Shown here piece after piece: positions 36,378 through 37,105 of a stretch of DNA of 64,000 nucleotides (position 1 is its first letter; every line of letters begins with the position of its first letter). The notes beneath the pieces were generated by a model. It worked only from the letters and a program-made list of their open reading frames with translations. It had not been told where the DNA came from and ran no database searches. This DNA is from Eledone cirrhosa. Its lineage: Eukaryota. The translations under genes and the position numbers were made by a program. The stretch is from positions 80,228,001-80,292,000 of the forward strand of contig OZ024740.1 in the NCBI GenBank assembly GCA_964016885.1, written 5' to 3'.

Positions 36378-37105
36378 TGAATGTATATATAGTATATTTG
36401 GCAAAATACCGTATGTTTAATTAAAAACATTTAGAAGACCATACGCTATCAGTTTTAAAGTAGTGACTATGTCACTTACTTCTTTTCGGCGAAAGAAGAG
36501 AGAGAAACTGACAGTCTGTTTCGCGCTGGTGGGCATTCATCAGAGCCCTGTACTCCCCTGCTTTCGCCGAAAATTATAGAAGCTGGATTCTTATAGAATT
36601 CCAGTAATAATCAGGAGCTAATTATTCAGAGCGATTGCCGGTCCAGCAAAAATTAGGTATTAGGATTGGTGCTCTGAAATAGCGATGTATACATGAATGT
36701 ATGTATATAATTAAACATACGGTATATTGCCAAATATACTATACATACATTCATGTATAGATCGCTATTTCAGAGCACCAATCCTAATACCTAATTTTTG
36801 CTGAACCGGCAATCGCTCTGTATAATCAGCTCCTGATTATTACTGGAATTCTATAAGAATCCAGCTTCTATAATTTTCGGCGAAAACAGGGGAGTACAGG
36901 GCTCTGATGAACGCCCACCAGCGCGAAACAGACTGTCAGCTTCTCTCCGTTCTTTCGCCGAAAAGAAGTAAATGACATAGTCACTACTTTAAAACAGATA
37001 GCGTATGGTCTTCTAAATATTTTTAATTAAACATACGGTGTATTGCCAAATATACTATACATACATTCATGTATACATCGCTATTTCAGAGGACCAATCT
37101 TAATA
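36378..37105. mobile_element. Family E ~730 bp palindrome of 316 bp retrozyme-like monomers
   Basis: Left arm is the reverse complement of the right arm; right arm terminally redundant (36709 = 37025). Confidence 0.9.
36874..36964 (+). ncRNA. Type I hammerhead with extended stem I (family E); mirror at 36483-36573 (-)
   Basis: ttttcggcgaaa..ggggag tacag ggct-CTGATGA-acgc ccacca gcgc-GAA-ACAG a CTGT-C-agct tctctcc..tttcgccgaaaa. Confidence 0.9.

Follow-up and report, generated by a model that had tools for sequence, protein, structure and literature searches.

Layout of the locus and of its relatives

Within the 64-kb stretch of DNA analysed here (the window), which is AT-rich, microsatellite-rich animal-type DNA with LINE-type reverse transcriptase (RT) and AP-endonuclease ORFs, positions 36372-37105 (locus A) are occupied by a head-to-head inverted pair of repeat copies, each arm of which carries a hammerhead ribozyme motif. 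The layout is as follows (coordinates, strand, feature):

36342-36378, no strand: (TA)n flank, left remnant of the target; the element boundary is ambiguous by a few bases
36372-36707, minus: inverted arm (A_L), about 336 nt or 1.06 units, running from unit position 32 to the short 3' terminus; tail absent
36479-36575, minus: the inverted arm's type I hammerhead, with C3 at 36543 and cleavage predicted 3' of 36510
36704-36740, no strand: head-to-head junction (36707/36708), with an unpaired 32-nt spacer (36708-36739) that contains TATATAA; same in locus B
36708-37105, plus: direct arm (A_R), 398 nt or 1.26 units of 316, a partial tandem with 82-nt redundancy
36740-36759, plus: hairpin of 20 nt, with 7 pairs in each of the 8 instances examined
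36874-36967, plus: the direct arm's type I hammerhead, with extended stem I and palindromic helix III; cleavage is predicted 3' of C36937
37076-37105, plus: 30-nt tail, from the short to the long 3' terminus, direct arm only
37105-37217, no strand: (CA)n(TA)n flank, right

An earlier note on this DNA had described 36378-37105 as a single terminally redundant monomer, and the 316-bp period that it reported is present (36709 against 37025, 95.1% across 82 nt); the left half (36372-36707), however, is an inverted second copy with a minus-strand hammerhead of its own, which went unmentioned in a description of the plus arm only. Positions 36369-36707 and 36740-37078 are 95% complementary across 339 nt, with 32 nt separating the arms, and A_L begins 31 nt deeper in the unit than A_R. 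The 5' base of the 20-nt hairpin is the start of the inverted arm, and its 3' base is the short terminus. The 316-bp unit has a G+C content of 38%. As no ORF of at least 120 aa was found in locus A, we regard it as non-coding (the RT and GIY-YIG ORF of an autonomous Penelope-like element (PLE) is absent), and Tandem Repeats Finder, run on the window, detected no array with a period near 316.

BLAST and profile searches within the 64-kb window recovered the following further copies:

53833-54570, no strand: locus B, a second inverted pair, junction 54155/54156, in orientation opposite to locus A, (TA)n on both sides
57088-57220, minus: locus D, a hammerhead fragment whose core reads CUCAUGA and which terminates in a snap-back hairpin with (TA)n after it
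59359-59796, plus: locus C, a single direct copy of 438 nt or 1.37 units of 319, which stops at the long terminus and is flanked by (TA)n left and right
60085-60163, minus: old 3'-end fragment that ends at about the long terminus and adjoins (CA)n

Locus C bears out the second period given earlier (about 319 bp; 319 for 59359-59796), has a redundancy of 119 nt and a GUAA core in place of GAAA, and lacks an inverted arm. The hammerheads of locus B (53973, minus; 54305, plus) have a shortened stem I, U-U at pair 10.1/11.1 and a GUU triplet. The different start points of the copies, previously read as what a circular or multimeric template would leave, do differ, yet the 3' ends are fixed: the long terminus is found on A_R, B_R and C and the short one on A_L, while B_L ends at about unit position 18 (in locus B it is the arm starting at position 32 that carries the long terminus). 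Two local peculiarities were also observed, namely a 57-nt internal duplication (54376-54435) in locus B, where the right-arm hammerhead has its 3' half repeated, and the 16-bp perfect snap-back hairpin at the end of fragment D (57080-57120), which looks like a self-primed extension on the sense strand.

The unit (36709-37024) was further compared with 4 of 10 listed public sequencing runs at 80% likeness. Matches were found in 5850 contigs of X1 and in 7180 of the 12.5 million reads of X8, which points to an abundant family (depth being no measure of copy number). The family has two 3' ends at fixed positions, separated by 30 nt and each continuing into (TA)n: among the ends listed, loose ends that continue into TATATA lie at 36759 (427 X8 reads) and at 36789 (334 X8 reads and 46 X1 contigs). 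Reads crossing the long terminus amount to about 210 to 640 (mean depth), against 761 ends into (TA)n, in a reduced-representation library (X8) in which divergent copies break alignments. Since the (TA)n ends match or outnumber read-through, dispersed short insertions appear to dominate over long arrays; short-read joints from 37024 to 36709 look alike in an array and in a redundancy. The largest pile of loose X8 ends (36777, 2437 reads, among the ends listed) speaks against this picture, as it runs into non-TA sequence, and is apparently one divergent copy, while a reading of the pile at 36850 as an EcoRI cut was dropped, as its 305 loose ends make divergence of a related family equally likely. 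The ribozyme region is thinly covered by reads, and the loose ends found there carry other stem I sequences, which indicates several subfamilies. An exact 24-nt pattern had no match in the metagenome and viral collections.

The hammerhead and its variation among copies

Six hammerhead motifs of the 316-bp family are present in the window. In the direct arm of locus A the core comprises CUGAUGA (36904-36910, with C3 at 36904), GAAA (36925-36928) and GUC (36935-36937), as had been proposed, and the extended stem I with an internal loop is borne out by its stability (z -3.2; none of 200 shuffles as stable). The description of this motif as a complete type I hammerhead holds for the core and the three helices and fails on completeness, given the A-C mismatch at 10.1/11.1, the state of helix III and Rfam scores below the gathering threshold (no hammerhead reaches it anywhere in the window, the only match being HH9 at 16.2 bits, E 0.7). 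Helix III of A_R is left with a 1-nt loop if all four of its pairs form, and has pair probabilities of 0.01; the cleaving fold, at -28.7 kcal/mol, lies 6.5 above the minimum free energy fold (-35.2 kcal/mol). Being palindromic, the helix does not fold in the monomer, while the self-dimer is predicted at -8.3 kcal/mol; animal hammerheads that act as dimers with such a helix III are described in passages of PMC4209133. Rfam matches to microRNAs at 36660-36787 were discarded, as they fall below the gathering score and reflect only the inverted junction.

Pair 10.1/11.1, a highly conserved G-C in hammerheads according to passages of the same source (PMC4209133), is A-C in both arms of locus A (36911/36924 in A_R), U-U in loci B and C, and A-U in D. 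In the family reads, T occupies 36924 in 292 of 323 and in 186 of 196 cases (i.e. an A-U pair), so that the A-C mismatch is peculiar to locus A. The core positions changed in C (GUAA) and D (CUCAUGA) are ones that we take to be essential.

When the six copies were aligned, 90.8% of 163 cells paired and 7 of 31 pairs changed on both sides, a number reached in none of 500 shuffles (controls: 2.3 +/- 1.2 such pairs in shuffles and 1-2 when slid); the covariation is drawn from six related rows, so that the shuffle count is not a probability, and four of the 7 pairs belong to distal stem I (mostly C versus A), where the two B rows are gapped. We argue that the ribozyme fold is likely under selection, judging from this pattern of substitutions. 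The earlier note was right that stem II covaries and that stem III alternates between ACAG/CTGT and ACAGA/TCTGT; both alternatives were misplaced, since CAC/GTG and ACAGA/TCTGT are located in the 53.8-54.6 kb locus, the copy at 59359 having TAC/GTA in stem II.

Templates and the mode of mobilisation

Unit size, low G+C, non-coding character and hammerhead type (a type I motif in a 316-bp unit) all fit the previously suggested retrozyme, as opposed to the tandem arrangement of two ribozymes, which does not occur in the window. Two ribozymes on one strand are the criterion for monomer release (passages of 10.64898/2026.07.22.740005), and none of the four hammerhead-bearing loci in the window has two consecutive units with complete hammerheads. 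Two cleavage sites on the same strand would take 548 nt ending at the long terminus, while the longest arm in the window has 438 nt; in locus A the redundancy corresponds to unit positions 1-82, and the ribozyme lies outside it. Two intact hammerheads never share a strand at any locus of the window, so that double self-cleavage would not free a 316 nt monomer from any of them. Moreover, RNA read through locus A would form 315 arm-to-arm pairs, with 33 of 34 core bases paired with the other arm. Locus A, in which each strand has one ribozyme, itself weakened, and in which such a hairpin of 315 bp would form, is thus not a circle source, and the step from it to a 316 nt circular RNA, taken in the earlier note, does not follow from a locus with one hammerhead per strand. 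The terminal redundancy fits a linear, partial-tandem PLE template equally well.

From the layout of locus A we infer a non-autonomous element of PLE type, and consider it probable that the 316-bp hammerhead repeat is mobilised by a PLE enzyme. In line with this reading, the copies display a partial tandem of the pseudo-LTR type (redundancies of 82 nt in A and 119 nt in C), an adjacent, head-to-head and 5'-shortened inverted copy (loci A and B), two fixed 3' ends with one of each in A (the second end of B being the exception), a hammerhead in the terminal repeat, and AT-rich or microsatellite targets. Passages of the literature on PLEs describe much the same organisation: Pen2a_Av has two direct pseudo-LTRs, an adjacent inverted one that is 37 bp shorter, mostly head-to-head, and a 31-bp one-ended tail (PMC3846280); PLEs have tails of 30-40 bp and a preference for (TA)n (PMC8557442); and Penelope of Drosophila has large inverted repeats around partial tandems (PMC2377424). 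Furthermore, passages of PMC11167929 report that the PLE protein of the anole cuts AT-rich DNA on both strands in vitro and extends each of them, that the tail equals the distance between two internal RNA start sites of the RT, and that hammerhead mutants leave insertion in vitro unaltered, uncleaved RNA being used.

On the assumption that this reading is accurate, the endonuclease of an autonomous PLE partner would nick both strands of a (TA)n run, and the RT would start inside the element RNA at two fixed sites, the long one on one strand and the short one on the other (168 and 138 nt downstream of the ribozyme cleavage site, respectively). Each cDNA would exceed one unit slightly, and their ends would be joined back to back next to the 20-nt hairpin, at a point determined by the sequence; this joining would yield the inverted arm together with the one-sided tail. 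The ribozyme would act only as a dimer or with protein help, trimming the element transcripts. Since the ends of the hairpin coincide with the short terminus and with the start of the inverted arm, the two junctions suggest that the hairpin sets both. We are less sure of the two-site priming step than of PLE-type mobilisation: B_L ends at about position 18 and not at the short site, which would require a later deletion, and the joining model has against it that the junction lacks microhomology and that the A/B junction is missing from the joints listed from reads (15 of 41). Target-site duplications are unreadable in microsatellite flanks, and GIY-YIG had no match in the 14 long ORFs scanned in the window, where the autonomous partner was not found.

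The kinship of the arms bears on how the inversion arises. The junctions of loci A and B, 17 kb apart, are base-identical, and 87 bases across the junction match; arm likeness is 95-96% within a locus and about 90% between loci. Among the substitutions at columns ungapped in all four arms, 11 of 12 informative ones group A_R with A_L against B_L with B_R and none group homologous arms (27 further columns are singletons or show other patterns), and at four positions (36898, 36899, 36916 and 36924) the two A arms have in common a letter seldom found in the family. As the arms are alike by locus, either the inversion was remade at the same base from one template per insertion, or the arms were homogenised later. 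The latter option, in which A and B descend from palindromic masters moved whole, with arms subsequently homogenised by gene conversion or hairpin repair, is possible but rather unlikely. It would account for a base-identical junction without microhomology at two distant loci, for the long terminus lying on the other arm in B (as if either strand of a palindrome could serve as template), and for the absence of the A/B junction from the joints listed from reads (15 of 41), among which five other opposite-strand joints do occur. Nevertheless, it demands complete homogenisation in both lineages (11 of 12 sites by locus, none by arm), and the end of A_L coincides precisely with the short terminus, a frequent one among the reads. 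Snap-back priming through microhomology at the junction was rejected, since inspection revealed none and the DNA folds are weak.

Other explanations fare worse on the same layout. The 339-nt inverted arms and TA flanks recall a DNA transposon of foldback or MITE type, located in TA sites and bearing long terminal inverted repeats, a very improbable origin in view of the unequal ends and of the direct-only copy C, which largely refutes it; moreover, the 5'-cut fragments share a 3' end with copy C, and the partial tandem, like the conserved ribozyme, indicates a passage through RNA. Artefacts may take the form of long inverted repeats separated by short spacers, and a fold-back error of sequencing or assembly therefore deserves consideration; we judge it more improbable still, as the A arms disagree at 12 of 285 positions, each having changes of its own, and the junction is common to two loci of different subfamilies.

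The circle itself fares better at the level of the family, where rarer master arrays with at least two intact hammerheads could give a 316-nt circle that a PLE enzyme copies from a fixed internal site over slightly more than one turn, a scenario that differs from the preferred one in its template only. We regard it as an outside but serious possibility, on the less likely side. All five complete arms measure 1.05-1.37 units (as would also befit a short linear partial-tandem transcript), the compensatory changes in stems I and II indicate selection on the ribozyme, and the A-U pair at 10.1/11.1 in most family copies implies that masters may cleave better than locus A; similar units yield circles in coral, mussel and axolotl according to passages of PMC7229834. 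The predicted circular fold is also stable (-81.2 versus -53.7 +/- 5.6 kcal/mol; none of 60 shuffles), though the linear arm alone has the same helices, so that the fold is not circle-specific. Weighing against the circle are the window loci, none of which has two intact same-strand hammerheads, and the reads, in which (TA)n ends outnumber read-through. Moreover, the PLE reaction in vitro used uncleaved RNA and hammerhead mutants were without effect (passages of PMC11167929), and 1 of 9 predicted Xenopus dimers cleaved (passages of 10.64898/2026.07.22.740005). A bolder combination, which we hold to be doubtful, is that a 316-nt hammerhead circle offers the PLE enzyme two fixed priming sites, 30 nt apart, from which just over one turn is copied per target strand, with the cDNAs joined at the fixed hairpin. 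If true, it would tie retrozyme circles mechanistically to PLE enzymes and would explain the regeneration of pseudo-LTRs, the tail and the inversion in one step and without an antisense template.

Relation to known elements and to neighbouring repeats

Under the preferred reading of a non-autonomous element moved by a PLE enzyme, the closest comparison is with the EN+ PLE clades (Penelope/Poseidon, Neptune, Nematis; e.g. Pen2a_Av of Adineta vaga and PAc of Anolis carolinensis), which, in the published passages, also combine a partial tandem, a hammerhead upstream of the 3' ends and AT-rich targets. The dimensions of Pen2a and locus A are close, with the inverted copy 5'-shortened by 37 versus 31 nt and tails of 31 versus 30 nt (for Pen2a, as given in passages of its description). 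Unlike in EN+ PLEs, the element here is 316 bp long and without an ORF, the whole corresponding to one unit, its hammerhead has a long stem I of canonical type in place of the minimal form, and its junction recurs at the same base. The non-LTR retrozymes of metazoans (coral, mussel, axolotl, Xenopus) are likewise non-coding, of 150-450 bp and with G+C under 45%, and have a type I hammerhead with a short palindromic helix III; one axolotl retrozyme motif in passages of PMC7229834 even has a weak base of helix II, as here. In contrast to their tandem arrays with at least two ribozymes, the present family consists of dispersed 1.05-1.37-mers and inverted pairs, and the word 'inverted' is absent from the searched passages of PMC7229834. 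MRC1 of the Chlamys clade (Chlamydomonas) is, according to passages of PMC8557442, likewise a non-autonomous PLE derivative that forms pseudo-LTRs, but canonical hammerheads are lacking in that clade and the host is an alga.

That retrozymes represent non-autonomous PLE derivatives has already been proposed (passages of 10.64898/2026.07.22.740005 and PMC7229834), the link having been drawn from co-occurrence and sequence similarity, and hammerhead repeats of such size are common in animals. The family's own contribution is the insertion footprint (two 3' ends, a one-sided tail and an inverted arm) on an ORF-free unit of retrozyme size. In the literature covered (mostly abstracts and passages of open papers, supplements excluded), neither this family nor a retrozyme-sized unit with a two-ended tail and a recurring inversion junction is described; passages of an octopus repeat annotation count Penelope-like families and do not contain the word 'ribozyme' (PMC13282606). 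The footprint points to the mobilising enzyme, and offers a small natural substrate for the study of how PLE inversions and tails form, and of whether a circle serves as the template. Furthermore, read-through of an inverted pair would in each case supply some 315 bp of double-stranded RNA.

Head-to-head pairs are not confined to this family: as other hammerhead families of the window adopt it too, the layout appears ordinary for this genome. A second, unrelated family (29880-30071, 40388-40624 and 44290-44510; cores at 29947, plus, and 44414, minus) is likewise arranged in head-to-head inverted pairs, with (TA)n on one side and (CA)n or (TA)n on the other; their junction lies immediately upstream of the ribozyme, and a degenerate piece of it (37215-37320) lies directly to the right of locus A. 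A third inverted pair (62034-62370, 83% over 339 nt) carries, close to either end, a hammerhead motif of minimal type (core at 62280, plus), and a lone hammerhead-like motif with a palindromic helix III is found at 35445 (minus) between (TA)n runs. A further multi-copy family of short repeats occurs in both orientations, also between (TA)n runs (27985-28215, 29219-29396, 34660-35294, 44489-44764 and 56054-56139), and a U6 snRNA copy (52113-52215, 95.9 bits, with a 3-nt gap relative to the model) adjoins (TA)n. The window additionally harbors a near-complete LINE (674-5629, minus), with a 500-aa ORF1 without a Pfam match and a split ORF2 (AP endonuclease, RT, zf-RVT), and a decayed relative of it at 47557-50396.
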